This document shows positions 1-19,662 of a stretch of DNA of 19,662 nt, piece by piece. Origin of the DNA: Candidatus Aenigmatarchaeota archaeon (GTDB lineage: Archaea > Aenigmatarchaeota > Aenigmatarchaeia > JACPZZ01). The notes below the pieces were generated by a model. That model saw only the letters and a list, made by a program, of their open reading frames with translations. It made no database searches and was not told the origin of the DNA. Positions within the stretch are counted from its first letter, which is position 1; every line of letters begins with the position of its first letter. The position numbers were made by a program, and so were the translations under genes. The DNA lies in the NCBI GenBank assembly GCA_043801595.1, contig JAZDLW010000027.1:1-19662 (forward strand), written 5' to 3'.

Positions 1-367
1 AACATGGGCAACGCAGTATATGACCCAGCAGACAAGCACGCTTACGGCAAAAGGGCAGGAAGCGAACTGCGTTTATGCGCGGATGGGTCTCGACAGTTTT
101 AATTACGAAAAAACAACCGGACAGCTTGTTTTGATTGTAAATAACAACGGCAGGATCGGGCTTCAGAATTTCACACTTTTCCTGTACAATTCAACCGGAA
201 TAGGGCGACTCTCCCTTGAAACGGACGTGAGCGTTGTAAACAGGCAGAACGTGACGCTGCCGCCCGGAGAGCCGCGCTCGTTCATAGTAAACGGCATAGC
301 GAACATAACAAGATTCAAGATTGTTTCAAACTGTCCGGACTATTCGTTCGTGGATCAAAGCGTATAA
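1..367 (+). CDS. Archaeal type IV pilin-like protein, 5'-truncated by the window edge
   Basis: Frame is open from position 2: TWATQYMTQQTSTLTAKGQEANC aligns with VWITGFTQQQTTTVGARGEKQTSC and NWVLDYSKAQTQVLDTRGSQQVGC of the two downstream pilins. Shares the C-terminal Cys (SNCP). The ATG at 20 is internal. Confidence 0.85.
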   Translation, partial: TWATQYMTQQTSTLTAKGQEANCVYARMGLDSFNYEKTTGQLVLIVNNNGRIGLQNFTLFLYNSTGIGRLSLETDVSVVNRQNVTLPPGEPRSFIVNGIANITRFKIVSNCPDYSFVDQSV

Positions 368-429
368 TTTGTACAGACACGATTCAATGTTTATAAGGGT
401 CGGAGACGATAAATATTTACAGAACTGAA

Positions 430-900
430 ATGAGAAAGGGTATTTCGCCATTAATAGCATCCGTACTTCTCGTAGCGTTTACGATGGCTGTTGCCGCTAT
501 CCTTGTTGTATGGATAACAGGATTTACACAGCAACAGACAACAACAGTCGGTGCGCGCGGAGAGAAACAGACATCGTGCAGTTTTTCAACAATTTCCATT
601 AACAAAGACGATGTCACAGCTTTGGGAAGCAAACTGAACATAACAGTAACTTATTCCAGCGGTACTGAGAAACTCAATATTACAGGCTTTGCACTCAGGG
701 ACGCCAACAGTGTAACTTATTACAACACCACTGTTGCAAGCGATACCACTTCCCTGAACATGAATGTCGGAGAAAACAGGAAGTTTATCAATTACGCGCT
801 TAACAGCCCCATCACCCCTGCCGGAACCGCGTGGGCCGAAGTCAGGGTAACAGCGCTTTGCCAGGACCAGGTTGCCATAGTGGGCACTGCAAAGGCTTAG
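430..900 (+). CDS. Archaeal type IV pilin (class III signal peptide)
   Basis: N-terminus MRKG|ISPLIASVLLVAFTMAVAAILVVW: basic residues plus Gly cleavage site, then a hydrophobic helix. Thr/Ser/Asn-rich body with two Cys. TTTATAAG at 390-397. Confidence 0.93.
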   Translation: MRKGISPLIASVLLVAFTMAVAAILVVWITGFTQQQTTTVGARGEKQTSCSFSTISINKDDVTALGSKLNITVTYSSGTEKLNITGFALRDANSVTYYNTTVASDTTSLNMNVGENRKFINYALNSPITPAGTAWAEVRVTALCQDQVAIVGTAKA

Positions 901-940
901 ATAACTTTATTCGGCTGAAGCGCGAATTAATGTTGATGTT

Positions 941-1402
941 ATGAAGAAGGGCTTGTCACCGCTTATTGCCACTGTCCTTCTTGTCGCGTTCACTATGGCA
1001 GTAGCCATTGTGCTAAGCAACTGGGTTTTGGATTATTCTAAAGCGCAGACGCAGGTTCTTGATACGCGGGGATCGCAGCAAGTCGGCTGTTCGGGAGCGT
1101 GGCTGGACGCGGACAGTGCGGTTTACAATACAACAGCGAGGCGATTTTCCACGGAAATCGTAAACAAGGGAAACGTGCCGCTTGGCGAATTCAAGATGAT
1201 AATCATATATAATAACGGCACCAGCAACGAGTACATCATTGCACCTGCAAATCTTTCTTTGGGCCCGGGTGTGCCGGTTTCGATACAAAACGTAAGCGTT
1301 GACAGTTCCGCGATTACAAGGGTACGCATCCCGCATAACTGCAGCGGTTCAAATGCTGCTGCGACAGCTACAATCGAATACGCCAACATAAAAGTTGTTT
1401 AG
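941..1402 (+). CDS. Archaeal type IV pilin (class III signal peptide)
   Basis: MKKG|LSPLIATVLLVAFTMAVAIVLSNW, nearly identical to the previous pilin's N-terminus. Two Cys and several N-x-S/T sequons. Confidence 0.93.
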   Translation: MKKGLSPLIATVLLVAFTMAVAIVLSNWVLDYSKAQTQVLDTRGSQQVGCSGAWLDADSAVYNTTARRFSTEIVNKGNVPLGEFKMIIIYNNGTSNEYIIAPANLSLGPGVPVSIQNVSVDSSAITRVRIPHNCSGSNAAATATIEYANIKVV

Positions 1403-1435
1403 ATCCTGCGACGCCCGACAAACAGTTGATTGTTC

Positions 1436-1876
1436 TCAGATAACAAACGCGAGGAAAAAGTACACCAGGAATATGTGCCTTAACGGAAGTATTACGTGTT
1501 TGTGATTTGTGAAACTGCAGACCGATAATGCGTTGTTCAGCGCAAACAGGTAAAACCATGGCGTGAAAAAGGGCGCGAATATTATTCCTTCCGACAGCCT
1601 GTCAGCGAATACGTCAACCATGTAGCCCTTTTCGGACACGAGCCCGTATTTCTTTGCTATAATCCCGTCAAACCAGTCCAATAAAAGGTTGGCGGCAAGC
1701 GCCACGAAAGCTATTGCAGTCGAATAGTGCAAAGACAAGACGAAGGCTATCCCAGCCAGTATCGACATGCCTGAAACGAAATTCGGGCTTATTTTCGGCA
1801 GAGGCAGGCCTATTACTGCCGCGTCCGTGAATTTCCGCAGATTTTTTACGATCCCTAATTTGCCATGCTTAACCAT
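1436..1876 (-). CDS. CDP-alcohol phosphatidyltransferase family protein (short, 146 aa)
   Basis: Signature DWFDGIIAK...GYMVDVFAD matches DxxDGxxA(R/K)...GxxxDxxxD. Preceded by 'ISPNFVS' (PN-x-x-T/S motif). Several TM segments. Confidence 0.9.
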   Translation of the reverse strand: MVKHGKLGIVKNLRKFTDAAVIGLPLPKISPNFVSGMSILAGIAFVLSLHYSTAIAFVALAANLLLDWFDGIIAKKYGLVSEKGYMVDVFADRLSEGIIFAPFFTPWFYLFALNNALSVCSFTNHKHVILPLRHIFLVYFFLAFVI

Positions 1877-2307
1877 ACCATCACGCCCAACAACGATGTC
1901 AAGATTATTTCCGATAAAACCCTGTACTTTTCAGGGACAATGCCCAGCGAAACCTCTTTTTTTGAGAACGGATAAAACGGCCGTGATTTTCCGACAAGAA
2001 AATCCGACGCAATATGGAGCGTCAGCGACATTGCGGCTATTTTTGCGAGCATAGAATTGAAGAAAAGGGACGCAAACGAAATTATGACCGAATAAACGAG
2101 CAAGCCGTACATTTCATGGAAGCGCGAACGAGATTCCGAACCGAATTTTTTTTTGATGAGTTTTTTTCCATTCCTGATTACGTAAGGGATATGGTCGATG
2201 TCCGGTAACACCGAAAACAATGCTATGAACGCTATATAGCCTGCAGCATTGCCGAAAACAGTGTTAATCACTATGTAGCTTATCAGGAAATGCAAAAGCG
2301 GGTTCAT
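1855..2307 (-). CDS. Membrane-bound metal-dependent hydrolase (YdjM/DUF457-like)
   Basis: Start moved to MNPLLH (ATG at 2307). Motifs N-terminal H, SVLPDIDH, RSRFHE, LHIASD, PFYPF are typical of the family. The longer ORF to 2577 overlaps the upstream gene. Confidence 0.8.
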   Translation of the reverse strand: MNPLLHFLISYIVINTVFGNAAGYIAFIALFSVLPDIDHIPYVIRNGKKLIKKKFGSESRSRFHEMYGLLVYSVIISFASLFFNSMLAKIAAMSLTLHIASDFLVGKSRPFYPFSKKEVSLGIVPEKYRVLSEIILTSLLGVMVWLSMAN

Positions 2308-2309
2308 AA

Positions 2310-2867
2310 TTATCGGTTTTTCCTGCTTTCTCTCCATTTGCTGTATGCGACAGGCGCTCCTGCCAATGCGAACAGGCCAGCGATTGCACCGGCCGTATAC
2401 GGTATTGCGTTTGCGTATCCTGCCAACGCTTCGATGACGTATACAGGAACGCCCACGGTTATTGTGTGGGAAAATGATGATGATAATATTGAACCTATGC
2501 TCGCGCGAACTGGATGTTTGTTTCCGCCGAGTGCTGTATAGACGCGTCTGTGCACATCGTGAGAAGGCTTGTTCCACGTCGACCAGAACGCCTCGTACGC
2601 TTTAAGATATTGGCCGCGGTCCGTGTACCTCTTTACCATTGCCTTGTTGTACATGTTGTCCGTGTAGTCCGGTAAACCAAGCTTTTGCACCATTTTCTTT
2701 TTCACGCCTTTTGGCAAAGGAAGATCTTTTGCTATTTCAAAACCGAGCCATTGCTTCGGGTTTGCGTGATAATTCTTTACAAAATTCGCCGCGTTCCTTA
2801 CTTTTACGTAAAAACCGCTACCTTTTTCCAGACTTTCCCTGATTGATTTTATATCCTGTTTGTCCAT
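2310..2867 (-). CDS. Hypothetical protein, basic soluble N-terminus with C-terminal hydrophobic segments
   Basis: Fills the gap between tadC and the hydrolase on the same strand. GGTG SD-like element 6 nt before ATG 2867 (GTG 2876 is the alternative). C-terminus TAGAIAGLFALAGAPVAYSKWRESRKNR looks like a membrane anchor. Confidence 0.7.
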   Translation of the reverse strand: MDKQDIKSIRESLEKGSGFYVKVRNAANFVKNYHANPKQWLGFEIAKDLPLPKGVKKKMVQKLGLPDYTDNMYNKAMVKRYTDRGQYLKAYEAFWSTWNKPSHDVHRRVYTALGGNKHPVRASIGSILSSSFSHTITVGVPVYVIEALAGYANAIPYTAGAIAGLFALAGAPVAYSKWRESRKNR

Positions 2868-2880
2868 TGACAGCACCAGT

Positions 2881-3753
2881 CTACATGTGTATGGCTGCAG
2901 CGGTCACCCAAGCGCCGTAACCTATCGAAACTAATGCGACCGAGTGTTTAAGACCGCCGAACAATGACCCTTCGGCCATTTTTCCGATTGCGAGGCCTGA
3001 GAATGTTCCTTGGATGATTATCATTGCCGTGAACATCAGATCGTACGAAGCAGCGTTCATCTCGCCTGACAAGCCGCCGCTTTCCAGGCCGCCCCCAAGG
3101 CTGGACAGCGATGGCAGCAGGAATTTCTGCAATCCGATCAGTACGCCCAAGAACACAAAGAAAATAGTGTAGCCGGTTATCATCTGGCCGTATATGTGCG
3201 ATGCGCGTTCTTTTTTTATTTTGTTTACTTCCAATATTGCGCCGGAAACGGCCTGCAAGACGTCGACAATGTTTCCACCGGATCTGTGCGTTTCGATTAC
3301 TGTCGCGACAGTGCGCTTGATAACAGGAGTCCCGCTTGTGTCGGCAAACGCCTTTAACACATCGTCGAAAGGCACTCCCCAGTCCATCTGGGCTGCCATC
3401 TGCCTTACAGTCGAATTAAGTTTTCCATAATCGTGCTTTGCAGCGGATTTCATTGCTATGGGCAGCGTCATGCTGGCGCGTACGCCGTCGACGACGTCGG
3501 TCAGGAAAAGCGGGAACGACGTTTCGATATCACGGGCAGTCGAATATTCGGAATAGCTGATTGACAGCGAAGGTCCGAGAGCGAGCGTTATTGATAGAGC
3601 GCCAAGCAGCTGGAATGCGATCGCGTTGTGCGAGAAATAAAGGAAGTTTATTATCACGACTATTATTGCCAGTATAAGGGAACCGCCGATAATGGCGGTC
3701 TTTTTCTTGTTTTTCAGCACCCAGCTTACAAGCCAGTTCTTTTTCACGTTCAT
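2881..3753 (-). CDS. Type II secretion system F / TadC-like pilus platform protein
   Basis: FPLFLTDVVDGVRASMTL...DYGKL...MDWGVPF...ETHRSGGNI is the T2SS-F domain pattern. C-terminal IGKMAEGS..GLKH is typical of archaeal TadC/FlaJ. Multiple TM helices. Confidence 0.9.
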   Translation of the reverse strand: MNVKKNWLVSWVLKNKKKTAIIGGSLILAIIVVIINFLYFSHNAIAFQLLGALSITLALGPSLSISYSEYSTARDIETSFPLFLTDVVDGVRASMTLPIAMKSAAKHDYGKLNSTVRQMAAQMDWGVPFDDVLKAFADTSGTPVIKRTVATVIETHRSGGNIVDVLQAVSGAILEVNKIKKERASHIYGQMITGYTIFFVFLGVLIGLQKFLLPSLSSLGGGLESGGLSGEMNAASYDLMFTAMIIIQGTFSGLAIGKMAEGSLFGGLKHSVALVSIGYGAWVTAAAIHM

Positions 3754-3755
3754 TT

Positions 3756-4631
3756 TTACAACTCCGGTTGGGTCATGTGTACGAATGCGAGGAATGCTAT
3801 ATTCATTAGGGGCAAGCCTACGAATATACCAAGCATCATCACGTTCTGGATCGAAGTTCCTGCCAGCTCACCGCCCATCATGTTCATGACAGTCAATATC
3901 GCAACGAGGAACAGCGGGGCTGCGATCAACATCGCGGTGTAGAAGTCGGCGTACGTTGCTAACAATTCCATGTATTTTTCCCTTCGTATCCGATAGTCGA
4001 AAAGCGCGTCTTTTGCCTGTTCCTTAAGGAATCTTTTCAGGTCTCCTCCTGTTTCGATGCTTGATTTTATACCTTCGAGCAGCTGACGGAAGTTTTTTGA
4101 AGGCGTCCGCTCCGCGATCTGCTGTATAGAGCTTGTAACGCTGAGCCCGAACGTGTCCACGTTCCTGACAATCTTGCTCGCTTCTTTGGATATTTCGCCG
4201 TACTCCTTGAATGAAGTCAGCAGGTTGAACATTACATAGGTCGGCACACCCGATGCAGCAATCGCAGCCATATGGTTGAGCGCGAAGGGCAGGTTCGCGT
4301 CTATGGACCTTTTTCGCGCCAGCGCCCTCTGGTAAGGGTACAAAACCAGGACGGAAAAAGACGATACGCCAAAAATGGGCGGAAGGCTTAACAAAAGGAG
4401 TAAAGTGTTCGTGAAATCAAGCTTGATGTTGTATGAAATTACGGACAGCAAAATGAAGGAAAACATTGCCGCCCCGACGCCTATTGCCGCGGACATTGAT
4501 ACCCACGTCCTTACCAGGTATTTCATGTCCGACTTTTCCAGGCCTGTTTTTACGAGTTTGAATCTTTGTTCGTATTTCTCAGGTATCCATCCGAAAATCG
4601 ATATTGCGAAAGAAGTGAAGTTCTGGGCCAT
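3756..4631 (-). CDS. Type II secretion system F / TadB-like pilus platform protein
   Basis: IDANLPFALNHMAAIAASG...YGEISKE...RTPSKNF...SIETGGDLKRFL is the archaeal T2SS-F pattern. Adjacent to the second F protein and the ATPase. Confidence 0.9.
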   Translation of the reverse strand: MAQNFTSFAISIFGWIPEKYEQRFKLVKTGLEKSDMKYLVRTWVSMSAAIGVGAAMFSFILLSVISYNIKLDFTNTLLLLLSLPPIFGVSSFSVLVLYPYQRALARKRSIDANLPFALNHMAAIAASGVPTYVMFNLLTSFKEYGEISKEASKIVRNVDTFGLSVTSSIQQIAERTPSKNFRQLLEGIKSSIETGGDLKRFLKEQAKDALFDYRIRREKYMELLATYADFYTAMLIAAPLFLVAILTVMNMMGGELAGTSIQNVMMLGIFVGLPLMNIAFLAFVHMTQPEL

Positions 4632-4691
4632 TTTAACCTATTTTAACTATTGTCGGGCTGGGCTAAATAAATTCTTTTCGCAAGGAAAACC

Positions 4692-5378
4692 CTATTTCAT
4701 CACAGCTTCTTCTTCCGGATAAGTCACCAGGCCCTTTTCGTTTATCTCGTACGGGTGGATTTTCTTAGAATGGTTTGTTGCGCGCATTTTCCATATGGTT
4801 ATGGCGCGGGTGAAGGTTGTCTCCGACTTGAAATAGTAAAGTACGACAACGCTGTCCGAGATGAATTCCTCCACGCCGAATCTGGATATTCCCACAGCTC
4901 CAGGCGGGATTTCGGACGTTATTATCGATGTGCAGTTGAGCTTTCGCAGAGTCATGCCAAGATTGAATATCATCCTGCGAAGCTCCGGAATATCCCTCAC
5001 GTAAAGCCCGAGCGCCGAGATCGAGTCTATGCAGACCCGTGTGGCGCCGGTGAGGCGAACGTTGGATTCGATTATATCGAAGATATCTTCTATGTGGTAC
5101 GGGTCGTACTTGATAAACACGACCTTCCTGTCCGCCTCAAGCGAATCAAAATCCATCCCGAACTGCCGCATGTCGCTCTTTATTATTTCCGGATTTTCCT
5201 CGAAAGAAATGTAAACGCCCCTTTCGCCGAACTTGGTCGCGCCGTTGTAGAGAAATTGCGCGCAGAATGTCGTTTTTCCAGTACCGCATGTCCCAGTGAG
5301 CAATGTCAATGAATTTTTCGGAAGCCCGCCTGCCACCATTTCATCGAATCCCGCAACGCCTGTTGGAACGCGTTCCAT
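4692..5378 (-). CDS. Single-domain KaiC-like (RecA superfamily) ATPase in the pilus operon
   Basis: RVPTGVAGFDEM, Walker A GTCGTGKT, SFEE, Walker B RVCIDS, EEFISD, WKMRAT. Start overlaps the ATPase stop (TAATG) with a GGTGA SD. Confidence 0.92.
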   Translation of the reverse strand: MERVPTGVAGFDEMVAGGLPKNSLTLLTGTCGTGKTTFCAQFLYNGATKFGERGVYISFEENPEIIKSDMRQFGMDFDSLEADRKVVFIKYDPYHIEDIFDIIESNVRLTGATRVCIDSISALGLYVRDIPELRRMIFNLGMTLRKLNCTSIITSEIPPGAVGISRFGVEEFISDSVVVLYYFKSETTFTRAITIWKMRATNHSKKIHPYEINEKGLVTYPEEEAVMK

Positions 5379-7090
5379 TATTTTTCACCAAGCACTGTTA
5401 TTCCCGCAGGGGTGGATTTGAGGTTCTTGATCTCTTCCTTGCTTATCGTAGAATACGGTTCCATGTTCTTCTCGATCCAATCCATTAATGTGGGCCTGTC
5501 CCTGTAATAAAGATTTATCATGTTTGACACGTCTTCGAACTTGTTCACTTTCTTCGCTATCATCCAGTTTATCACACGTTCCCGTTCCTTGACGTCTTTT
5601 TCAAGTGTTTCAAACGTAACTCCAAGTTTTGTGCCGAGCCTTCTCAGCAGAACACTTTCGTCTTTTTTCAAATACGTGTCAGATATCGGGTCCCACGCGT
5701 ACGATTTCAGGAAATGCACTTTTCCTGTTACCGTATCCATTGATTCAATTTCGTCTATCTCGCTTATTCTTCTCGCGGATTTTCCAATTTCGCGGGCGTG
5801 CGTTAAAACGATTATCATGTCCAACGATTCTATCAACGACGGTGGCAGGCTTATGGGCGGCGTTATTAGTCTTCGTATCACGCCTTCAATCGAGTCTGCG
5901 TGCATTGTTGTCATTGAAGGATGTCCCGAGGCCATGCCCTGAAACATCACGTACGCTTCCTGACCCCGCACTTCACCCACGATAACGTAATCCGGATTCT
6001 GACGGAACGAGCCTTTTAGAAGGTCGAACAGACTCACTTCTCCGTATTTTTCCCCGCTTTCCGTTGGTATTCCGAATCCGGAGCGTGAAACGCTCGGTAT
6101 CCAGTTTTCGTGCGGCAAACTCAATTCGCGCGTGTCCTCGATCGTGATTATTTTTTGCTCGGGTTTTATGAACATTGATAGACAGTTTAACAGCGAGGTT
6201 TTACCAGTAGCAACACCTCCGCACAACAATATGCTTGAACCATGTTCGACTGCGACCCACAGGTAAGACATCAACTCGGGCGAGGCTGTTCCCACGCCAA
6301 TGGTGTCGACGGGTGAGAACGGATCTTCCCTGAATTTTCTTATTGAGAATGTCGGGCCGTGCGTTGTGACGTCCGACGATAACGAAGCGTGCACTCTGGA
6401 TCCGTCCGGCAAACTTCCATCAAGGATCGGCTCTGCGTAACTTATGTAACGCCCGCACCTTTCCGCCATCTTGACCACAAAGTCCCTTAAATTTTCGGCG
6501 TTGTCGAATTTCACGTTTGTCTTGACCGATCCGAACACCCGATGGATAATGTATACGGGCACACCAATACCGTCGCAGCCTATGTCTTCTATTCTCGGGT
6601 CGTTCATGAACGGTTCGATTTCATTTAGCCCGATAAAGTTCCTGTAAATATAGTAGAATATCTTGGCATACTTGTGCGTCGGAACGTTAAGGCCGGCATC
6701 TGCGATCACTTTTTTGACATGGTCTTCGAGGTATTTTACAGCCTCTTCCTTTTTCGTGATGGACGAGAGTTCGACATCGAGAAGTTCCATAAGGTCTGAT
6801 GTTATGTCTTTTATGATCTGCTTGTCCTGTTCTGAGAGAATGGGTTCAATTACCTTGTAAACAAGCTCGTGTTTCTGGTCATCCCATACTATGTTTGCGT
6901 AAAGAAACGGCTCTATAAGCGGATAGCGCGAGTTCATTTCGCGGATATGTTCGGCGTGCGCCGTGATTATTACCGGACTTTTCTGGTGTTTCAGGAAAAG
7001 CGGATAGACGCTTTTGAATTTATCGGCATTCGGAGTCGACGTGACAAACCTTTTTCTAAGCGCACCGCGCAGGGATGTTATTCGGAACAT
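5378..7090 (-). CDS. Type II/IV secretion (pilus assembly) ATPase, VirB11/TadA/FlaI family
   Basis: IEDIGCDG, LPDGSRV, FSIRKF, Walker A GGVATGKT, Asp box TIEDTREL, RQNPDYVIVGEVRGQE, His box SGH...TMHA. Confidence 0.96.
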   Translation of the reverse strand: MFRITSLRGALRKRFVTSTPNADKFKSVYPLFLKHQKSPVIITAHAEHIREMNSRYPLIEPFLYANIVWDDQKHELVYKVIEPILSEQDKQIIKDITSDLMELLDVELSSITKKEEAVKYLEDHVKKVIADAGLNVPTHKYAKIFYYIYRNFIGLNEIEPFMNDPRIEDIGCDGIGVPVYIIHRVFGSVKTNVKFDNAENLRDFVVKMAERCGRYISYAEPILDGSLPDGSRVHASLSSDVTTHGPTFSIRKFREDPFSPVDTIGVGTASPELMSYLWVAVEHGSSILLCGGVATGKTSLLNCLSMFIKPEQKIITIEDTRELSLPHENWIPSVSRSGFGIPTESGEKYGEVSLFDLLKGSFRQNPDYVIVGEVRGQEAYVMFQGMASGHPSMTTMHADSIEGVIRRLITPPISLPPSLIESLDMIIVLTHAREIGKSARRISEIDEIESMDTVTGKVHFLKSYAWDPISDTYLKKDESVLLRRLGTKLGVTFETLEKDVKERERVINWMIAKKVNKFEDVSNMINLYYRDRPTLMDWIEKNMEPYSTISKEEIKNLKSTPAGITVLGEK

Positions 7091-7451: not shown

Positions 7452-7535
7452 AACAACCAAACCAAATTTGTTGGCTATGTATATAAGGTTTCTTCCCGCC
7501 TAATATTATAGACTTTTAACCCGGCGATGTTAGCT

Positions 7536-9008
7536 ATGACATTCAATGAACGCAACCTGCAAAAACCCAAATTAGAGAAAATAAACGATTTTGTCTGGGA
7601 AATACCGAAAACTTTCAAGGCGGGCATGCGCGTTCCTGCGCGCATCTACGCTTCTGAAGAACTCGTAAAAAACATGGATTTGCAGGTTTTCGAACAGATC
7701 ACGAATGTTGCGACATTGCCTGGGATTATCAATCATGCGTTTTGCATGCCAGACGGACATTCCGGATACGGTTTTCCAATAGGCGGTGTCGCTGCGTTTG
7801 ACGCGGATGAGGGCATCATCTCGCCCGGAGGAATAGGTTTTGACATAAATTGCGGGATGAGGCTCTTATTGACGAATCTTTCATACAAGGACGTAAAGCC
7901 GCACCTGAAAAATCTTGTGGACCGCCTTTTTGAAAAAGTTCCGGCTGGAGTCGGATCAACAGGTTCTGTTAAGCTAACAAAAGAACAGTTCAAAAAAGTC
8001 GTAATGGAAGGGTCGCGGTGGTGCGTTGAGAAGGGCTACGGCTGGGACGAGGATCTTGAGCGGACAGAATCGGAAGGCGTAGACGAGGGCGCGGATGTCA
8101 GCGCCGTTTCGCAGAAAGCGATTGACCGCGGTTTCAACCAGATCGGGACGTTGGGATCAGGAAACCATTACCTCGAAATACAAACCTTGAAAAAGGAAAA
8201 TATATTTGACGAGAAACTTGCGAAAAAGTGGGGATTGTTCGAGAACCAGGTTGTAATCATGTTTCACTGCGGTTCGCGCGGTTTCGGACACCAAATCGGG
8301 ACGGATTATCTGCAGAATTTTCTCGAGGTTATGGAACGGAAATATAAAATAAGCATACTTGACAAGGAATTGGCGTGTGCGCCTTTTAACTCTGTCGAAG
8401 GGCAGAATTATTTCAAGGCAATGAAGTGCGCCGTAAACATGTCCTTTGCGAACAGGCAGGTTATTCTTCACAGAGTGCGGGAAGTTTTCTCGGAAGTCTT
8501 TAAACAGGATGCGGAAAAACTCGGAATGCACCAGGTTTACGATGTCACGCATAACCGGGCGGCTCTCGAAAAACACAAAGTTGACGGTAAAACAAAAGAA
8601 GTTGTAGTGCACAGAAAAGGCGCGACCGGATCGTATCCAGCCGGCCGCGAAGAGATACCAAAGAAGTATCGCGATGACGGATCGCCGGTGATAATCGGCG
8701 GGTCAATGGAGACCGGTTCTTATTTGTTGGTAGGCGGCGAAAAAGCAACGGAAACGTTCTGTTCGACTTGTCATGGTTCCGGACGCACGATGTCAAGAAC
8801 GCAGGCAAGAAAAATGGTGCGCGGCGAAGAGCTGCAGAAACAAATGGAATCGCGCGGAATATACGTTAAGACCGTGTCTTATTCCGGTTTGGCAGAGGAA
8901 AGCGGGATAAGCTACAAGGAAATAGACGAGGTGGTGCGCAGCGTCGACGCTGTTGGTTTGTCGAAGCGCGTCTGCAAGCTTGCGCCGATGGGAAATGTTA
9001 AAGGCTAA
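7536..9008 (+). CDS. rtcB: RNA-splicing/repair ligase RtcB
   Basis: MPDGHSGYGFPIGG, GFDINCG, GTLGSGNHYLE, HCGSRG, HN, HRKGAT, HGSGR, C-terminal GNVKG. ATG 7536 preferred from TATA spacing (7527 is the alternative). Confidence 0.98.
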   Translation: MTFNERNLQKPKLEKINDFVWEIPKTFKAGMRVPARIYASEELVKNMDLQVFEQITNVATLPGIINHAFCMPDGHSGYGFPIGGVAAFDADEGIISPGGIGFDINCGMRLLLTNLSYKDVKPHLKNLVDRLFEKVPAGVGSTGSVKLTKEQFKKVVMEGSRWCVEKGYGWDEDLERTESEGVDEGADVSAVSQKAIDRGFNQIGTLGSGNHYLEIQTLKKENIFDEKLAKKWGLFENQVVIMFHCGSRGFGHQIGTDYLQNFLEVMERKYKISILDKELACAPFNSVEGQNYFKAMKCAVNMSFANRQVILHRVREVFSEVFKQDAEKLGMHQVYDVTHNRAALEKHKVDGKTKEVVVHRKGATGSYPAGREEIPKKYRDDGSPVIIGGSMETGSYLLVGGEKATETFCSTCHGSGRTMSRTQARKMVRGEELQKQMESRGIYVKTVSYSGLAEESGISYKEIDEVVRSVDAVGLSKRVCKLAPMGNVKG

Positions 9009-9021
9009 TATCAGCGGTGAT

Positions 9022-9315
9022 TTAAAATAATCCCAACTGGAATGACGCCGTTATCCCTATTACCGTGCCCAGCGTGATGCTTGCGAACATGACCGCCTTC
9101 TTTGAAGTTGGCATAACGCTGAATTCGTGAAAATTTCCTGCTATATTCAAATCGATTTTCTTCATTGCTACGACTGCGATGGCCATGACAACCAGAGCAA
9201 TGAGCCGACCGAAAATCCTGTAAACCAATCCGAGCAGCGTAATCACGACGGGAATCAGAATCAAAAACGAAACGCATATTAAATAATAATTCCTGTAATT
9301 CTTTTCCTGTTCCAT
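9022..9315 (-). CDS. Small hypothetical membrane protein (about 3 TM)
   Basis: 97 aa with three hydrophobic stretches. TATA-like TTTAATAC on the minus strand begins 30 nt upstream of the ATG. Confidence 0.7.
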   Translation of the reverse strand: MEQEKNYRNYYLICVSFLILIPVVITLLGLVYRIFGRLIALVVMAIAVVAMKKIDLNIAGNFHEFSVMPTSKKAVMFASITLGTVIGITASFQLGLF

Positions 9316-9363
9316 AAATTAGTATGATCATTGTTGGGTATTAAAGTTGTCTGTTTTAAAATT

Positions 9364-10074
9364 TTATACCACCCGGTAATACAGCCGACGATTCGACTTA
9401 CCCTTGTTCTCCACATCGACCAATTCTATTCTTCCTATCTCGGAAGTGTTTTTAACGTGCGTTCCGCCGTCAGCTTGTGCATCGACATCGCCTATTTTTA
9501 CTATTCTCAATTCGGGTATTTCCGGCGGCAGCGCGTGCGCCAATTTAACAACCCCCGGAATTTTCATCGCGGTCTCGCGTTTCATGAACTCCGTTTCAAC
9601 AGGAATATTCCTCGCGATAATGTTGTTTGCAATATCGACATACCTGCTTATCTTTTCCCTGTCGAAATTCTCCATATTGAAATCCATGCGAGATTTATCA
9701 ATGTTTAGCTGGTTTCCGGTTATTAGAACACCTTCTTCTTTGTTGAACACGGCACTAAGAATGTGCGCGGCTGTGTGCATCCGCATCAATACGTGGCGGC
9801 GAGTCCAGTTTATCCCGCATTCCACCATATCGCCCGCACTTAATCCGTCTGTGCTGACTTTGTGGATTATCTCGTTGTTTTTTTTCGTGACTTCCACGAC
9901 GTCAAACGATGCGTCGGCATTGATAACGGAGATCGTGCCGGTGTCGCCGGGCTGCCCTCCGGACGACGGGTAGAAAGCGGTGACATCAAGTATCACGTTC
10001 GTCCCTTCGGTAGAAACAACTGCAGCTGTAAAGTTCCTTATGTACGAATCGTGCAGATAGAGTTGTTCCGCCAT
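9364..10074 (-). CDS. alaXM: Free-standing alanyl-tRNA editing protein AlaX-M
   Basis: LYLHDSY, TAFYPSSGGQPGDTG, MRMHTAAHIL (HxxxH), ADGGTHVKNTSEIG, KGKSNRRLY. Confidence 0.95.
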   Translation of the reverse strand: MAEQLYLHDSYIRNFTAAVVSTEGTNVILDVTAFYPSSGGQPGDTGTISVINADASFDVVEVTKKNNEIIHKVSTDGLSAGDMVECGINWTRRHVLMRMHTAAHILSAVFNKEEGVLITGNQLNIDKSRMDFNMENFDREKISRYVDIANNIIARNIPVETEFMKRETAMKIPGVVKLAHALPPEIPELRIVKIGDVDAQADGGTHVKNTSEIGRIELVDVENKGKSNRRLYYRVV

Positions 10075-10093
10075 TCGGATATTTTGAATTTTT

Positions 10094-10103
10094 TTTATTT
10101 AAG
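10094..10103. promoter_or_regulatory. TATA element apparently shared by divergent alaXM and archease genes
   Basis: TTTATTTAAG reads TTTATTTA on + (31 nt before ATG 10125) and CTTAAATA on - (29 nt before ATG 10074). Same spacing as other promoters in the window. Confidence 0.55.
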
Positions 10104-10124
10104 CCTATCATGACGATGTTATGC

Positions 10125-10556
10125 ATGGTTTACAGGTTCATTGAAGGATTGTCGCTTGCCGATGTCGCTTTTGAAGCGGAAGGCAAGACGCTCGAAGAAT
10201 TGTTCGAGTCCGCGGCGCTAGCCACGATGAACGTGATGGTAAAGGATCTCACAAAAATCGAACTAAAAAAACGCAGGAAGATCACGGTTTCTGCGAAGGA
10301 AATCGATAAGCTCCTTTTCAATTTTTTGCAGGAGATAATTTATGTCAAGGATGCGGAGCTTCTGATTTTCGGAAAGTACAAAATCAGGATAAGGGAGAGA
10401 GGCGACCTTTATTCCCTTGTGTGCAGCGCGTTCGGAGAAAAACGTGACATGGAAAAACACGAGCTGGTTGTTGATGTCAAGGCTGTCACCTATCACATGT
10501 TTGAGGTGAAGAAGGAAAAGGACAAGTGGAAAGCGCGGGTTATCCTAGATATTTGA
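10125..10556 (+). CDS. Archease (RtcB activation cofactor)
   Basis: YRFIE..ADVAFEAEGKTLEELF, LLFNFLQEIIY, DVKAVTYH, C-terminal ILDI. About 1.1 kb from rtcB. Start at MVYRF by family length and TATA spacing. Confidence 0.95.
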   Translation: MVYRFIEGLSLADVAFEAEGKTLEELFESAALATMNVMVKDLTKIELKKRRKITVSAKEIDKLLFNFLQEIIYVKDAELLIFGKYKIRIRERGDLYSLVCSAFGEKRDMEKHELVVDVKAVTYHMFEVKKEKDKWKARVILDI

Positions 10557-11771
10557 AAAGTAATCAGCCAGTTCCGATAATTTCACACAATCTTCTTTGC
10601 GGGTTTGCATGTTCCTTACCTTTGCGGTTTTATTTTTTATTTCGTCAGGCCCGACCACGACAACGTACGGTATTGCAAGCGCGCTGGCGTATTCGAGTTG
10701 TCGTTTGACGTTTCGGTCGCCGAGCTCGATGCTTGTGCTGATCCCTTTTTTCCTAAGATCGTTGGCAATGTTAAAAGCTTCTTTCCTGATATCGCCGATA
10801 ACCGCTATGAACACCTTTGACACCGTTTTCGCATCACCCTTGTCGAGAAGCTCGATCAGGCGGTCGATGCCTATTGACATGCCAACCGCAGGAAGGTCGC
10901 CGGCGCCATACAGCGACATAAGCTTGTCGTATCGTCCTCCGCCTCCGATGCTGACGGATAATGATGATACTACTTCGAAAACGTTGCCGGTGTAATATTC
11001 GAGCCCGCGGACAAGGCTGATGTCTATTTTTACACGTTTTCCGAAGCCGTTATCCTGAAGTATTTTTTTCAATTCCGAAAGCTCGTTGTACCCGTCAACA
11101 TCTTTCAGCGTAGAAACGTCCTTTCCAAGATAAGAAAATATTTCCTTCGCATCTACGCCGAGTTTTTTAAGCTCTTCATCAACGCCGTTTTTCCCGATCT
11201 TGTCCATTTTATCTATGATTCTGAACACGTCTTCTATCTTATTTTTTCCCACGCCGCATTTCAAAAGAATGCTTTCCAAAAATTTCCTGTTGTTGATGCG
11301 GACAACAAAATCTTTTAATCCGACTGCCTCCAGCGATTCTATTGCAGCCGATACGCACTCAGCATCGGCGGTTATCGACGACGAGCCCACTATATCCACA
11401 TCAGCCTGCGTGAACTGCCGCCAGCGCGATGCCTGCGGGTTATCGTAGCGCCAGACATCGCCTATTGCGTAGCGGCGGAACGGTTTCGGCATGTTCGGAT
11501 TGTTCGATAAAAATCTTGCAAGCGAGACTGTCAGATCGAAACGCAATCCTAGTTCACGGTTGCCCTGATCCTTGAAATTGTATATTTCGCGGCGTATTGC
11601 GTCGCCGCTGCCCTTCATTGAAAGCATATCAAAACTTTCCAATGCAGGCGTGTCCATTGGCGAGAAACCGTAGCGTTCGAAAACAGACCTTATCGCGTCT
11701 ACAGTTTTCTGTTTCTTTATCATATTCTCTGGCGCAAAATCGCGCATGCCTTTTGGCGGACTGAACTTCAT
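10545..11771 (-). CDS. hisS: Histidine--tRNA ligase (full length, with anticodon-binding domain)
   Basis: PKGMRDF, LRFDLT, motif 2 WRYDNPQASRWRQFTQ, HisA VRGLEYYTG, GGGGRYD, motif 3 AVGMSIGIDRL, C-terminal anticodon domain (QLEYA...VVVGPDE...VRNM). GGTGA SD 5 nt before ATG 11771 (11783 is the alternative). Confidence 0.96.
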   Translation of the reverse strand: MKFSPPKGMRDFAPENMIKKQKTVDAIRSVFERYGFSPMDTPALESFDMLSMKGSGDAIRREIYNFKDQGNRELGLRFDLTVSLARFLSNNPNMPKPFRRYAIGDVWRYDNPQASRWRQFTQADVDIVGSSSITADAECVSAAIESLEAVGLKDFVVRINNRKFLESILLKCGVGKNKIEDVFRIIDKMDKIGKNGVDEELKKLGVDAKEIFSYLGKDVSTLKDVDGYNELSELKKILQDNGFGKRVKIDISLVRGLEYYTGNVFEVVSSLSVSIGGGGRYDKLMSLYGAGDLPAVGMSIGIDRLIELLDKGDAKTVSKVFIAVIGDIRKEAFNIANDLRKKGISTSIELGDRNVKRQLEYASALAIPYVVVVGPDEIKNKTAKVRNMQTRKEDCVKLSELADYFSNI

Positions 11772-11791
11772 TCGATTCACCATTTACGTAT

Positions 11792-12415
11792 CTATTTGGG
11801 TCTTTCAATTAATATCGCATTGCTATCTAATACCTTTTCGAGCTTTTTTAATTCGTTTGCTTCGCTGGTTTTTCCGCCGTTAACCACGTCAACAACAACG
11901 TCGGTCAGGTCCAAATCAACCAAAGCTTCCCAAGAACCTTCCAAGCGATTCAGAGGTATTGAATTGACCTCGCTCCAAAGCCCCAGTTTCCTCATCATTC
12001 TTTCGCTTAATTTTGGATATGGGCTTGCCACGCGTATTGGCTGATTATAATTTTCCAGAGGTTTTCTTCCAAGGATATACAAACCGCAGTATCCGAAGTC
12101 CAAATCAGCGACTTTGTTTAGTCTTGTTGTATAACGGTTGCTTAAAAGATATTCCTCGAATATATCTTTACCTGTTATTCCGTAATCCCCTATCAATTCG
12201 GTTATTTGCGGAACGTCCCAGCTCCTCATTTTGACTATTCTCACCTTTTGCATTTTTTTTGCGCTTCCACTATAACGAACAAACCAATAACCTGGTAATG
12301 TTTCCACGTAGTCCTTTGAACTCAGATCAGCCGGGATTCCCAACGATTTTAGAAATTCTTCAGAACCTTTCGATAATTCGCCTTTTGGGCAAACATACGT
12401 AACCAATTCACCCAT
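11792..12415 (-). CDS. hisG: ATP phosphoribosyltransferase, short form (HisG-S)-like, divergent
   Basis: 207 aa from MGELV. PKGEL, RSWDVP, DYGITGKD, LDFGYC, RVASPYP, LEGSWE, DVVVDVVNGGKTSEANEL and SNAILI follow HisG motif order. No C-terminal ACT-like regulatory domain. Confidence 0.85.
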   Translation of the reverse strand: MGELVTYVCPKGELSKGSEEFLKSLGIPADLSSKDYVETLPGYWFVRYSGSAKKMQKVRIVKMRSWDVPQITELIGDYGITGKDIFEEYLLSNRYTTRLNKVADLDFGYCGLYILGRKPLENYNQPIRVASPYPKLSERMMRKLGLWSEVNSIPLNRLEGSWEALVDLDLTDVVVDVVNGGKTSEANELKKLEKVLDSNAILIERPK

Positions 12416-12590
12416 CTTTATCGCCCCTTTCCGCAACCAATTTATTATCTTTGATCGTAAGCCTAACTGAGATACCCTCAAGAAAACGCAGTTTAGCCCT
12501 TAATCTGATAGGAATAAAGATCCTGCCTTTTTTATCGATGTTGGATAGAATATAGCTAGAACTGGACAAACGCGTGAAGTGATTCACCAT
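12408..12590 (-). CDS. AbrB/MazE/SpoVT (MraZ-like) swapped-hairpin DNA-binding protein
   Basis: IDKKGRIFIPIRLRAKLRFLEGISVRLTIKDNKLV matches the family pattern. Stop overlaps the hisG start by 8 nt (ATGGGTGA). Start is ATG 12590 or TTG 12608. Confidence 0.85.
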   Translation of the reverse strand: MVNHFTRLSSSSYILSNIDKKGRIFIPIRLRAKLRFLEGISVRLTIKDNKLVAERGDKDG

Positions 12591-12605
12591 TGTTTTTGTC
12601 TGCCA

Positions 12606-12634
12606 CAAAGTTCACCTTTGCTATATTGATAGCA
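12606..12634. promoter_or_regulatory. Candidate operator: two adjacent inverted repeats upstream of abrB-hisG-hisS
   Basis: CAAAG-ttcac-CTTTG (12606-12620) and TGCTAT-attg-ATAGCA (12619-12634), just downstream of minus-strand TTAATATA (12645-12638). Confidence 0.4.
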
Positions 12635-12718
12635 GCGTATATTAATCTTCCAAGGTGGGAAAATCGCCTATAAAGCAGTCTGTATAAACGCTTAATCTTT
12701 AACCATCCATATCTAACT

Positions 12719-13500: not shown

Positions 13501-14169
13501 TCATACGACAACGCGCAAACCCGACGCAGTAAACTCGAGCGGGAAATATCCACGCGCATGTTTTGTGCGCCGCATTTTCCTTATTTCAATATTGTTGAAT
13601 TCTTCACCGCCAAGGCCGGTGTAATAAAGGCCGATAACGCCGTCTGCGATAAACTCTTCTATCGCGTAACGCGAAAAGCCTTTAGAACTTTCAGTCACCT
13701 CTGACGTCATCAATATTGTGCAACCGGTTTTTTTCAAACTCTGAACCAAACGGTAAATCTTTTCGCGCACCTTAAATTCATCCCGCACATACATAGCAAA
13801 GACGGATGTCGAATCTATTACGAGGCGTTTTGCACCTATTTTTTTAACTTCGTCGACAATGAGCTTGTTCGTATCTGCTATTTCGAGAGGATCGTAGAAA
13901 ACTATCTTGCACATTTTTTTCCTTTCATAAGCGTCAAAATTCCAGCCGAACATCATCGCGTCTTCCTTGACTTCTTCGGGCGACTGTTCGAAAGTAACGT
14001 AGACACAGGGCTCGCCTTTCTGCAAACCGTGCCATAAAAATTGAAGGCAGAACAACGTCTTTCCGGCACCGGTGTGACCGGAGACCAATACGGCTGAACC
14101 AGGAATTAAGCCTCCGCCGATAAGATCGTCAAGACCGCTTATGCCAGTTTTCACTCTTGATAATGCCAT
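13501..14169 (-). CDS. Second single-domain KaiC-like ATPase
   Basis: RVKTGISGLDDLIGGG, Walker A GHTGAGKT, TFEQ, RLVIDS, EEFIADG, RKMRRT. Own TATA (TTTTATTA) 30 nt upstream. Confidence 0.92.
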   Translation of the reverse strand: MALSRVKTGISGLDDLIGGGLIPGSAVLVSGHTGAGKTLFCLQFLWHGLQKGEPCVYVTFEQSPEEVKEDAMMFGWNFDAYERKKMCKIVFYDPLEIADTNKLIVDEVKKIGAKRLVIDSTSVFAMYVRDEFKVREKIYRLVQSLKKTGCTILMTSEVTESSKGFSRYAIEEFIADGVIGLYYTGLGGEEFNNIEIRKMRRTKHARGYFPLEFTASGLRVVV

Positions 14170-17858: not shown

Positions 17859-18800
17859 ATGCCTGATTTTGTTGTCGGCAACGACGATTTTGGCAAAATT
17901 CTTTCAAAATCACTCGGCTGCGCGTACAGACAATTTGTTGAGGAATTTTACGCTGACGGCGAGCCGTGCCCTAGAATAAACGCGAATTACAACGAACTTT
18001 CCGGTAAACACGTTGTCTTTGCCCCGCGGGCTTCGCAAAAACCGACGCGCGAAACGATCGCGTTGTATCTTCATGACTGCGAGCGCGTTCTCGGAGCGTT
18101 GACGAACAAGGATCTTTACAATGCCGGACGCGTCGAACTGGTTCTGCCGTATTTCATGCTTGGCAGGCAGGATCATAATCCTCGCACAGATAGCAATGAA
18201 AGCGTAAGGATGAAAGACGCCGGAAAGGACGTAGGATACGCTGCAATAGCCGCAATTTATAAGGCTTTGGGAGCGGACAGGATTATAACGTTCGATCCCC
18301 ACTTTTACAGAAAAGAAGGCATTATCAGAGTTTCCGGAATCGACGTAGTTTCGCTTTCCGGCGTTTACGCTTTGGGAAGGTATTTTCAGGGCACGGACGG
18401 AGATACTGTTGTTGTCGGCCCGGACATGAACGCCAGCACGCTTTCCACAAAGCTTGCGGACATTCTCGGAGCGAAATCGCACAGCTTTCCGAAAAAAAGA
18501 ATAAGCGACACGAAGGTCGAAATAAAGGAGGCTTATGACGCAGAAGGCGCGCATGTTATTCTCGTTGACGACATACTATCGACAGGAGGAACGATACGGG
18601 AAGCCATAGACAACCTTTACGGCGCTTCAAGCATTAACGTGGCGTTCATCCATCCCGTACTGCCGGATGTCGGTTATAACAGGATAATGCAATTGCATAA
18701 ATCCGGAAAAATACGCGATGTTGTTGCGACGGACACGATAAACTCCGAGTTCAGCAAGGCGAGCGTTATTCCGGAACTGACAAAAGCGTTGATGGGCTAA
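17859..18800 (+). CDS. prs: Ribose-phosphate pyrophosphokinase (PRPP synthetase), divergent archaeal type
   Basis: FYADGE, PYFMLGRQD, TFDPH, VVGPD, KKR, PRT loop LVDDILSTGGTI, HPVL, TDTI. Confidence 0.88.
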   Translation: MPDFVVGNDDFGKILSKSLGCAYRQFVEEFYADGEPCPRINANYNELSGKHVVFAPRASQKPTRETIALYLHDCERVLGALTNKDLYNAGRVELVLPYFMLGRQDHNPRTDSNESVRMKDAGKDVGYAAIAAIYKALGADRIITFDPHFYRKEGIIRVSGIDVVSLSGVYALGRYFQGTDGDTVVVGPDMNASTLSTKLADILGAKSHSFPKKRISDTKVEIKEAYDAEGAHVILVDDILSTGGTIREAIDNLYGASSINVAFIHPVLPDVGYNRIMQLHKSGKIRDVVATDTINSEFSKASVIPELTKALMG

Positions 18801-18829: not shown

Positions 18830-19662
18830 ATGGCTCTCAAAAGAGCATTATCTTATTTCGATCTGACGAGCATTGTTGTCGGTTCCATCATCGGGTCGGA
18901 CATATACATCGCTTCCGCGATAACTGCGGGCCTTGTCGGACCGTTTTCAGTCGTTGTCTGGATTATTGCGGCTGTGATCGCGACATTGTTGGCATTGGTT
19001 TTTGCGTACTGCAGTTTCTACGTTCCGCGCGTCGGCGGGTCTTTCGCATTCGTCTCGGAAGCTTTCGATGATTTCTACGGTTTCCTGAGCGGCTGGAGCA
19101 TGTGGATTGCTGAGATGCTCGCGCTTCCGGTTTTCGCGATAACGTTTACGAATTATCTGCAGCATTTCATTGTTTTGGATTTTTTCCAGCAAACTGTTGT
19201 TAAAGCGTTGTTCCTGTTCGGTTTGACATTCATAAACATAATCGGCGTAAAGGCGGCTGGCAAGGTTAACGACGTGCTTACGATTGTGAAACTTTTACCG
19301 CTGATATTGATCGTTGTCGCAGGCTTTGCAATGTTCGCGCAAAATCCGTCGTTCATTGCGAATTATTCCCCGCTTGCGCCGCTTGGGTTTGCGAATGTCG
19401 GAACAGCCTTGGTTTTAATATTCTGGGCATACGCGGGTTTTGAACTAGGCACACTGCCGGCGAGCGAAGTAAAGAATCCGAAGAAAACCATACCGAAAGC
19501 GATCATTACTGGAATGGCGATCGTCACTTTGTTTTACCTGACAACAAATTTCGTCGTGTTCGGAACTGTCAACTGGACCGAGCTTGCGACTACGAAAACG
19601 CCGCTGATACTCGTAGGAGCTGCGCTGCTGGGAACAATAGGCGCTGCGATAATGAGTTTCGG
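18830..19662 (+). CDS. APC-family amino acid permease, 3'-truncated by the window edge
   Basis: Absent from the ORF track because it has no stop. My translation: MALKRALSYFDLTSIVVGSIIGSDIYI...PRVGGSFAFVSEAF..FYGFLSGW...NIIGVK...FWAYAGFE...EVKNPKKTIPKAI. TTTATAGG 27 nt upstream. Confidence 0.95.
   Translation, partial: MALKRALSYFDLTSIVVGSIIGSDIYIASAITAGLVGPFSVVVWIIAAVIATLLALVFAYCSFYVPRVGGSFAFVSEAFDDFYGFLSGWSMWIAEMLALPVFAITFTNYLQHFIVLDFFQQTVVKALFLFGLTFINIIGVKAAGKVNDVLTIVKLLPLILIVVAGFAMFAQNPSFIANYSPLAPLGFANVGTALVLIFWAYAGFELGTLPASEVKNPKKTIPKAIITGMAIVTLFYLTTNFVVFGTVNWTELATTKTPLILVGAALLGTIGAAIMSF

Follow-up and report, generated by a model that had tools for sequence, protein, structure and literature searches.

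The sequence described here is a window of 19,662 nt, by which we mean the whole stretch of DNA that was analysed. It forms contig C5 in the 814-kb genome assembly (G000, 86% complete) of a Candidatus Aenigmatarchaeota archaeon, and it carries on its reverse strand a gene for a short homologue of ATP phosphoribosyltransferase (ATP-PRT), hisG (11792..12415), followed by hisS, the gene for histidyl-tRNA synthetase (HisRS; 10545..11783). A preliminary description of the window had proposed that HisRS itself may act as the regulatory subunit of this HisG in place of HisZ. Upstream of hisG and on the same strand lie a short leader open reading frame (ORF), a candidate +1 frameshift cassette and an ORF for an AbrB/MraZ-like DNA-binding protein, all of which were absent from that description. 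From the comparison of these sequences across the phylum we consider it probable that hisG and hisS are neighbours as cargo of a histidine-starvation-induced operon, gated by a predicted +1 frameshift at a His codon, and not as a pair in which HisRS substitutes for HisZ.

Read in the direction of transcription (all features on the reverse strand), the module opens with a conserved CCCAC box (GTGGG; 12655..12659), a candidate operator of the AbrB/MraZ-like protein, followed by a TATA-like element (TTAATATA; 12638..12645) that represents a putative promoter. The sequence AGGTGA (12612..12617), which resembles a Shine-Dalgarno (SD) element and is unchanged in three related contigs, lies 5 nt before the GTG start of the 16-codon leader ORF (MADKNNGESLHAFVQF; 12556..12606), which contains one His codon. 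The candidate cassette (12574..12588) consists of GGTGAA as internal SD, TCA as 3-nt spacer, CTT as P-site codon and CAC (His) as A-site codon. In the +1 frame, the AbrB/MraZ-like ORF (12408..12578) carries a DxxGR motif and no His, and its stop overlaps the hisG start; leader, cassette and this ORF all lie within 12408-12659 upstream of hisG, and the trans-frame product would be 65 aa long. Over 12566-12589 there is not a single difference in three contigs that come from one groundwater run and are about 85-90% alike. One of these contigs, which continues into hisG, keeps the leader stop by a double change (TAG to TGA) and loses the in-frame ATG that stands at 12590 here; genome G003 likewise lacks this ATG.

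The relation between cassette and AbrB frame recurs across the phylum. We sought the motif GG.GA.-NNN-(NTT|CCC)-CAY in frame with a short leader and applied the rule that the AbrB frame lies at +1 from the last site and at +2 from the previous one. Of 23 discovery loci, 21 obey this frame rule, ten with one site (+1) and eleven with two (+2 then +1), and two break it. An AbrB-domain profile has matches in 170 of 371 genomes, and 78 of the best-scoring loci among the matches listed, unused before (E <= 6.4e-13; G017 and G324 left out), served as a held-out set that was scored with a fixed SD threshold. Here the rule holds in 64 of 78 loci (pattern '1' in 38, '2,1' in 25 and '1,2,1' in one); the others show '2' (five loci), '0' (one) or, at this threshold, no site (eight). 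With a weaker SD match, accepted post hoc, 11 more held-out loci fit, two resemble the earlier exceptions and one has no site. Under the strict rule 85 of 101 loci conform in both sets together, and the spacing of tandem sites equals 3n+1 in 36 of 37 cases, at lengths of 16, 19, 22, 25 or 28 nt. At 125 of 130 sites the zero frame terminates ahead of the AbrB motif. A start codon in frame with the first site lies upstream of it in 91 of 93 loci, and the GG.G core of the internal SD is present at 94-98%. When any A-site codon was allowed after a strong SD and a slippery codon, the A-site proved to be His in 100 of 109 cases. The P-site codons at the counted sites, in a search restricted to NUU/CCC, are GUU (75), CUU (41), CCC (7), UUU (6) and AUU (1). 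The AbrB frame is devoid of a start codon in 9 of 23 discovery and 28 of 78 held-out loci.

The match of the AbrB-like ORF to the MraZ family (PF02381) is weak, at 20-21 bits below the cut-off of 23, and the DxxxR motif is invariant in 22 of 22 AbrB-like proteins. Through this motif MraZ recognises GTG(G/T) boxes in its own promoter (PMC12957436, 10.1101/2022.02.09.479790). The protein predicted here shares with the MraZ/AbrB-SpoVT proteins of those reports the invariant DxxxR, the position as first gene of an operon and a GTGG-type box at its own promoter; it differs from them as a single domain of ~55-80 aa and a predicted trans-frame product, with usually one box upstream of a TATA-like element and an ORF that often spans a tRNA-His gene. 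CCCAC lies ahead of a TATA-like element, mostly by 5-8 nt, in 89 of 93 cassette loci, whereas base shuffling would predict 3.4. A role of CCCAC as a general promoter element was rejected, the arrangement occurring only 12 times among 6995 TATA-like words of this genome. At several loci (L027:1082-1363, L028, L085 and L102) the AbrB-like ORF continues in frame across an intact tRNA-His gene, and in G264, G345, G224 and G281 the corresponding stretch looks like a decayed tRNA. A second class of AbrB protein (L097, L098, L099, L064 and L090, from G309, G327, G319, G323 and G177, respectively) is longer, about 130-140 aa, with a C-terminal part of ACT-like appearance; it has GTGGG repeats upstream and adjoins pairs of very divergent HisG-like genes, and neither an SD-led site nor the frameshift cassette was found before it.

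What follows the module is chiefly hisS. A gene of the HisRS family lies downstream on the same strand in 60 of 78 held-out loci, the other 18 having at most 1.6 kb of downstream sequence; tRNA-His is part of the module in 32 of 78, and hisG in one of 78, in a set that by construction excludes loci already known to carry hisG. Similarly, four genus sisters possess an identical cassette and no hisG. The slot between module and hisS holds various cargo genes, namely racemase (8), hisI (4), HisRS-like paralogues (3), aromatic amino-acid lyase (3), radical SAM plus methyltransferase (3), creatininase-like (2), GNAT (2) and DUF6282 (2), as well as hisD, M20 peptidase, FAD oxidoreductase and unknowns. 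Several of these could plausibly supply histidine. The HisRS-like paralogues occur without hisG (L216, L240 and L204, from G065, G066 and G090), with a creatininase-like gene in two of these loci, and some cargo proteins of 290-355 aa without Pfam match (L262:598-1662, L243 and L270) are His-free and recurrent in several genomes. A toxin-antitoxin reading of AbrB plus HisG was rejected, since the AbrB module mostly occurs without hisG. The encoded proteins avoid histidine: there is none in the 675 residues of AbrB, HisG and HisRS of the window (1.57% in the proteome), and His-free are 20 of 24 HisRS and 18 of 22 clade HisG, compared with 26 of 84 other HisG.

Since the A-site codon is a His sense codon, the input of such a switch would be the supply of His-tRNA. 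With plentiful His-tRNA the ribosome would decode CAC and terminate at the leader stop. With scarce His-tRNA the A-site would stand empty, and the contact between SD and rRNA would push the P-site tRNA-Leu from CUU to UUC, allowing the AbrB-like protein to be made. This protein may then bind the CCCAC box at its own promoter. Activation is the probable effect, since the box stands upstream of the TATA-like element, a position that in archaea generally points to an activator. Ribosomes terminating at the hisG start would contribute translational coupling, and HisRS, tRNA-His where present, and the cargo gene would all rise.

The closest known parallel in architecture is prfB, which has a CUU_U shift site, an SD 3 nt upstream and a slow codon in the A-site (PMC5009743). 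The window cassette likewise has its SD 3 nt 5' of the shift codon and a P-site CUU_C able to re-pair in +1, within a short zero-frame ORF that precedes a predicted functional +1 product, as in the prfB described there. Unlike prfB, the A-site holds CAC/CAU instead of UGA, and the product is AbrB-like instead of RF2; the cassette is archaeal, often has two sites in series, and would yield a small transcription-factor-like protein that heads an operon. The cassette is thus predicted to work like prfB but is not prfB. It would resemble the His leader attenuator of E. coli and Salmonella in letting the decoding of His within a leader ORF signal the charging of His-tRNA to a his operon (PMC3896937); here, however, there is one His codon in a shift context as opposed to seven in a row, and the output would come by change of frame as opposed to terminator/antiterminator folding. 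According to a passage of a 2016 review (PMC5009743), hungry-codon frameshifting that gives a starvation-specific functional product was not known. In the open-access literature, subscription and older papers being thinly covered, no archaeal amino-acid-sensing frameshift was found. The parts (prfB architecture, His leaders, MraZ boxes, short HisG) are known, and their combination was not found in print.

The product of hisG, 207 aa without His, was recognised as short-form HisG in the preliminary description, and the profiles agree: the catalytic core is present (PF01634 83 bits, above the Pfam cut-off; TIGR00070 87.8 bits, cut-off 75.75) and the C-terminal regulatory domain is absent. An AlphaFold2 model (predicted local distance difference test score 93) resembles solved ATP-PRT cores with template modelling scores of 0.71-0.77. 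The equivalents of the catalytic arginines R32 and R56 are E13 and K34, as placed by profile alignment rather than by superposed coordinates, which weakens this assignment; the ATKY lysine is also replaced. D84, E163, D176 and T183 are kept, and the motifs that bind phosphoribosyl pyrophosphate (PRPP; equivalents of D94, E163, D179 and T183) are present, while the equivalents of K137 and T180 are replaced. The R32 position is acidic in 10 of 16 aligned clade HisG, compared with E in 2 of 126 canonical HisG. A protein search with HisG gave three close homologues (E<1e-30), and a metagenome scan returned one locus. In the HisG(S) of P. arcticus R32A lowers activity 25-fold and R56A 42-fold (PMC9734150), and short HisG by itself has low activity (PMC10795190).

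Profile searches for other his genes, in which hisC and hisH were not included, found no hisD, hisE or hisB in the genome. The single PF00977 match for hisA/F is partial, and in our reading looks like geranylgeranylglyceryl-phosphate synthase. A lone divergent hisI (PF01502 65 bits; L003:1393-1734) lies on another contig (C23, near 50100), where it immediately follows two genes resembling lumazine synthase and one resembling GTP cyclohydrolase II, and no cassette precedes it. The product of HisG cannot proceed to histidine in this genome as assembled. A complete his pathway elsewhere in the genome, which would have spoken against the preliminary description, is not seen, and its alternative of an orphan HisG fits this genome. 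Most likely this HisG works alone, as a slow transferase that binds PRPP and is insensitive to histidine, and is a remnant of a his operon.

HisG-like genes occur in 46 of 371 genomes of the phylum, with hisD above cut-off in 8 and hisI in 16; of these 46, 4 also carry hisD and 12 hisI, a strong hisE match was seen in 3, and 5 have a full-length hisA/F. The recurrence of hisG-hisS adjacency in relatives, which the preliminary description had left to a survey, is borne out, HisG standing directly before hisS in 14 of 59 HisG ORFs (10 short-form and 4 long-form). At one end of the range, full his operons (L092, L095 and L068, from G200, G345 and G337) begin with the same leader/AbrB module as the window, open with a short hisG of a distinct clade, contain hisA-I-E fusions and end in hisS, without hisZ; each of these genomes has one HisRS-family gene, canonical in the two tested. 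Intermediate operons in the phylum are hisG-hisD-hisS, hisI-hisG-hisS and a hisG-hisI fusion. These full operons and intermediates, together with long forms beside hisS, indicate that the adjacency is what a collapsed operon would leave and is not specific to short HisG.

It follows naturally to ask whether the frameshift switch is real and HisG itself a functionless, decaying relic of the collapsed operon. The replaced arginines and ATKY lysine, the long branches and the intermediate operons would all fit, as would the lack of hisG in all six same-genus genomes, among which the gene upstream of hisS differs, and an orthologue (G282, L079:1065-1790) that lies between tRNA-His and hisS and is interrupted by an in-frame stop. 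We nevertheless regard this as rather unlikely. The HisG frame is intact, the equivalents of E163 and D94 are invariant and the PRPP-loop T/S is kept in 17 of 17 clade HisG, the His-free composition is retained, and hisG (46 of 371 genomes) is far commoner than hisD (8) or hisI (16). Moreover, a related contig shares the cassette-hisG layout, and 14 of 25 differences in a partial list, counted by hand, fall at third positions.

The neighbour of hisG is an ordinary synthetase gene. The HisRS scores 384 bits with TIGR00442 (cut-off 286.75) and 207 with the hisZ model, below its cut-off of 271.65; as had been noted from the sequence, it is full-length. It is canonical, with the anticodon domain PF03129, RGLEYY and GGGRYD. 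The first ATG of hisS (11783) follows the hisG stop by 8 nt and the second (11771) by 20 nt. The second is the probable start; it agrees with that of relatives and has an SD-like GGTGA 5 nt upstream (11777..11781, reverse strand); the earlier figure of a 20-nt gap before an SD-preceded hisS corresponds to this second ATG. Database records of Ca. Aenigmatarchaeota or uncultured archaeon are 68-71% identical to it. A genome-wide search for hisZ gave none, the sole PF13393 match in this 86% complete genome being the canonical HisRS, so that a HisRS paralogue without anticodon domain beside a separate true HisRS, as expected of HisZ, is not present here. Exactly one HisRS-family match was obtained in 43 of 46 hisG genomes, G116 having three, G193 two fragments and G326 none. 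These Aenigmatarchaeota genomes break the textbook expectation of a hisZ wherever hisG(S) occurs (PMC8305728).

The premises of the HisRS-HisG complex put forward in the preliminary description, namely the absence of hisZ and a single HisRS, therefore stand, while the complex itself has found no positive support and is not needed. In this proposal HisRS doubles as regulatory subunit of the short HisG, as in a pre-HisZ complex, and the operon co-expresses the partners. It agrees with the missing HisZ here and in 43 of 46 hisG genomes, with the short form of 10 of 14 directly adjacent HisG, with the three full pathways of G200, G345 and G337, and with the fusion of a HisG domain behind an HGTP anticodon-binding domain in two genomes (L070:1524-3242 in G116 and L091:3863-4723 in G034). 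HisZ, furthermore, rescues single Arg mutants of P. arcticus HisG, but neither R56K nor the loss of both arginines (PMC9734150), and the HisG of the window has E13 and K34; the low activity of short HisG alone (PMC10795190) is also to be set against the proposal. A long HisG, which needs no HisZ, adjoins hisS in 4 of 14 cases, and most loci of the module have hisS downstream but no hisG. No co-divergence of HisG with HisRS is seen (Mantel rho -0.15, p 0.84 for 12 short-HisG/HisRS pairs; 0.12, p 0.17 for 18 pairs). This is a weak test, HisG identities being close to saturation (21-43% to this HisG), a reservation that counts against our reading. L102, the nearest HisG for which the context is available (43%), is paired with a HisRS of another clade, and the HisRS here, 67-71% identical to those of hisG-less genus sisters, forms an ordinary branch among them in a quick tree. 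Compared with the HisG(S)-HisZ hetero-octamer (5M8H, 8OY0, 1Z7M, 1USY), fold, length, PRPP-loop and glutamate motifs of HisG(S) are shared; unlike it, there is no HisZ, the neighbour is a canonical single-copy HisRS, E13/K34 stand for R32/R56, and the rest of the pathway was not found. Long hisG abutting hisS, the lack of co-divergence and the replacement of both arginines lead us not to favour the complex, which we judge unlikely for this genome; it may apply to the three relatives with full operons, short HisG and no HisZ. The open-access literature, again with poor coverage of subscription and older papers, yielded nothing on ATP-PRT of Aenigmarchaeota or on an archaeal HisZ/HisRS short form.

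Several observations weigh against the frameshift itself. Genomes G113, G118, G108 and G120 do not follow the frame rule, and no site exists in G084; the genomes are related, hence the counts are not independent. The P-site codon met most often, GUU, leaves a mismatch at the first position when its tRNA re-pairs with UUC. The 3' end of the 16S rRNA, which would confirm the anti-SD, was not found in the assembly. The +1 frame here has its own ATG and GTG (12590, 12587) and GGTGA supplies a GTG in many loci, which makes direct initiation possible. Translational coupling is not strictly needed either, as hisG and hisS are each preceded by an SD-like element. The HisRS of sisters G002 and G006, in which no cassette was seen near hisS, is also His-free, and the arms GTGAA/TTCAC are able to form a hairpin or palindrome. 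At the loci of the four rule-breaking genomes (L083, L036, L208 and L200, respectively), variant leaders have their second His site 17-20 nt further along and already in the frame of AbrB.

These points find their alternative in the reading that the conserved GTGAA-N4-TTCAC is a DNA operator or an RNA hairpin without frameshift, the AbrB-like protein starting at an ordinary codon. DNA binding is a property of AbrB-family proteins, some in-frame start for AbrB exists in 50 of 78 held-out loci, and the window copy is a perfect palindrome that folds as a 5-bp hairpin; its stability, however, is not above that of shuffles (z -1.2), all five pairs are present at just 30 of 130 sites, and CCC-CAY variants lose the palindrome and retain the His codon and the slip. 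The 3n+1 spacing over five different lengths and the AbrB frames without start likewise tell against it, and a better operator candidate, CCCAC, sits separately at the promoter, so that we hold this reading to be quite unlikely. The rival readings address different parts of the locus and overlap. That HisG was repurposed for work related to tRNA-His or HisRS (binding or modifying tRNA-His) and not for synthesis of phosphoribosyl-ATP (PR-ATP) appears very improbable, for although the R32 position is acidic in 10 of 16 aligned clade members (E in 2 of 126 canonical HisG), tRNA-His often lies directly upstream, fusions of HisG with an anticodon domain exist and Salmonella HisG binds His-tRNA (which the literature search did not confirm), tRNA-His is in the module with or without hisG (32 of 78), was not found in this assembly (ARAGORN, blastn), and no RNA-binding feature was identified in the 207-aa HisG.

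As to the surroundings, the statement that no other his gene lies in the window holds for its ORFs, 10 of which were scanned against Pfam. Adjoining hisS (7527-10556) are an RtcB-like gene (by appearance), an AlaX-type editing protein and archease; the genes at 1-7090 and 13501-14169 are pilin-like, secretion ATPase and KaiC-like. A divergent ribose-phosphate diphosphokinase, a PRPP source, lies at 17859-18800 (TIGR01251 above cut-off), followed at 18830-19660 by a putative amino-acid permease, by appearance. In the assembly 17 tRNA genes were detected, several of them called with long introns. A chimeric assembly was rejected: GC content is unremarkable, the flanks are common to genus sisters, and an unrelated contig also joins the cassette to hisG.

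If the predicted switch is real, it would be an amino-acid sensor of only 15 nt, shared by about a hundred genomes of Aenigmatarchaeota, and a mode of amino-acid sensing not described before, would show SD-stimulated +1 frameshifting in archaea, and would explain the odd his fragments that adjoin hisS in reduced genomes. A more far-reaching version, which we offer as improbable, is that host-dependent archaea sense histidine by hungry-codon +1 slips, often two in series, that would make a transcriptional activator of the hisS/tRNA-His operon, and keep, of the whole pathway, only its committed first enzyme, normally subject to feedback, as a histidine-insensitive short HisG to push host histidine overproduction; the starved cell would make PR-ATP or pass on the enzyme, bypassing host feedback control. 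The HisZ-free short-HisG pathways of G200, G345 and G337, finally, are the right place to ask whether HisRS acts as an ancestral HisZ.

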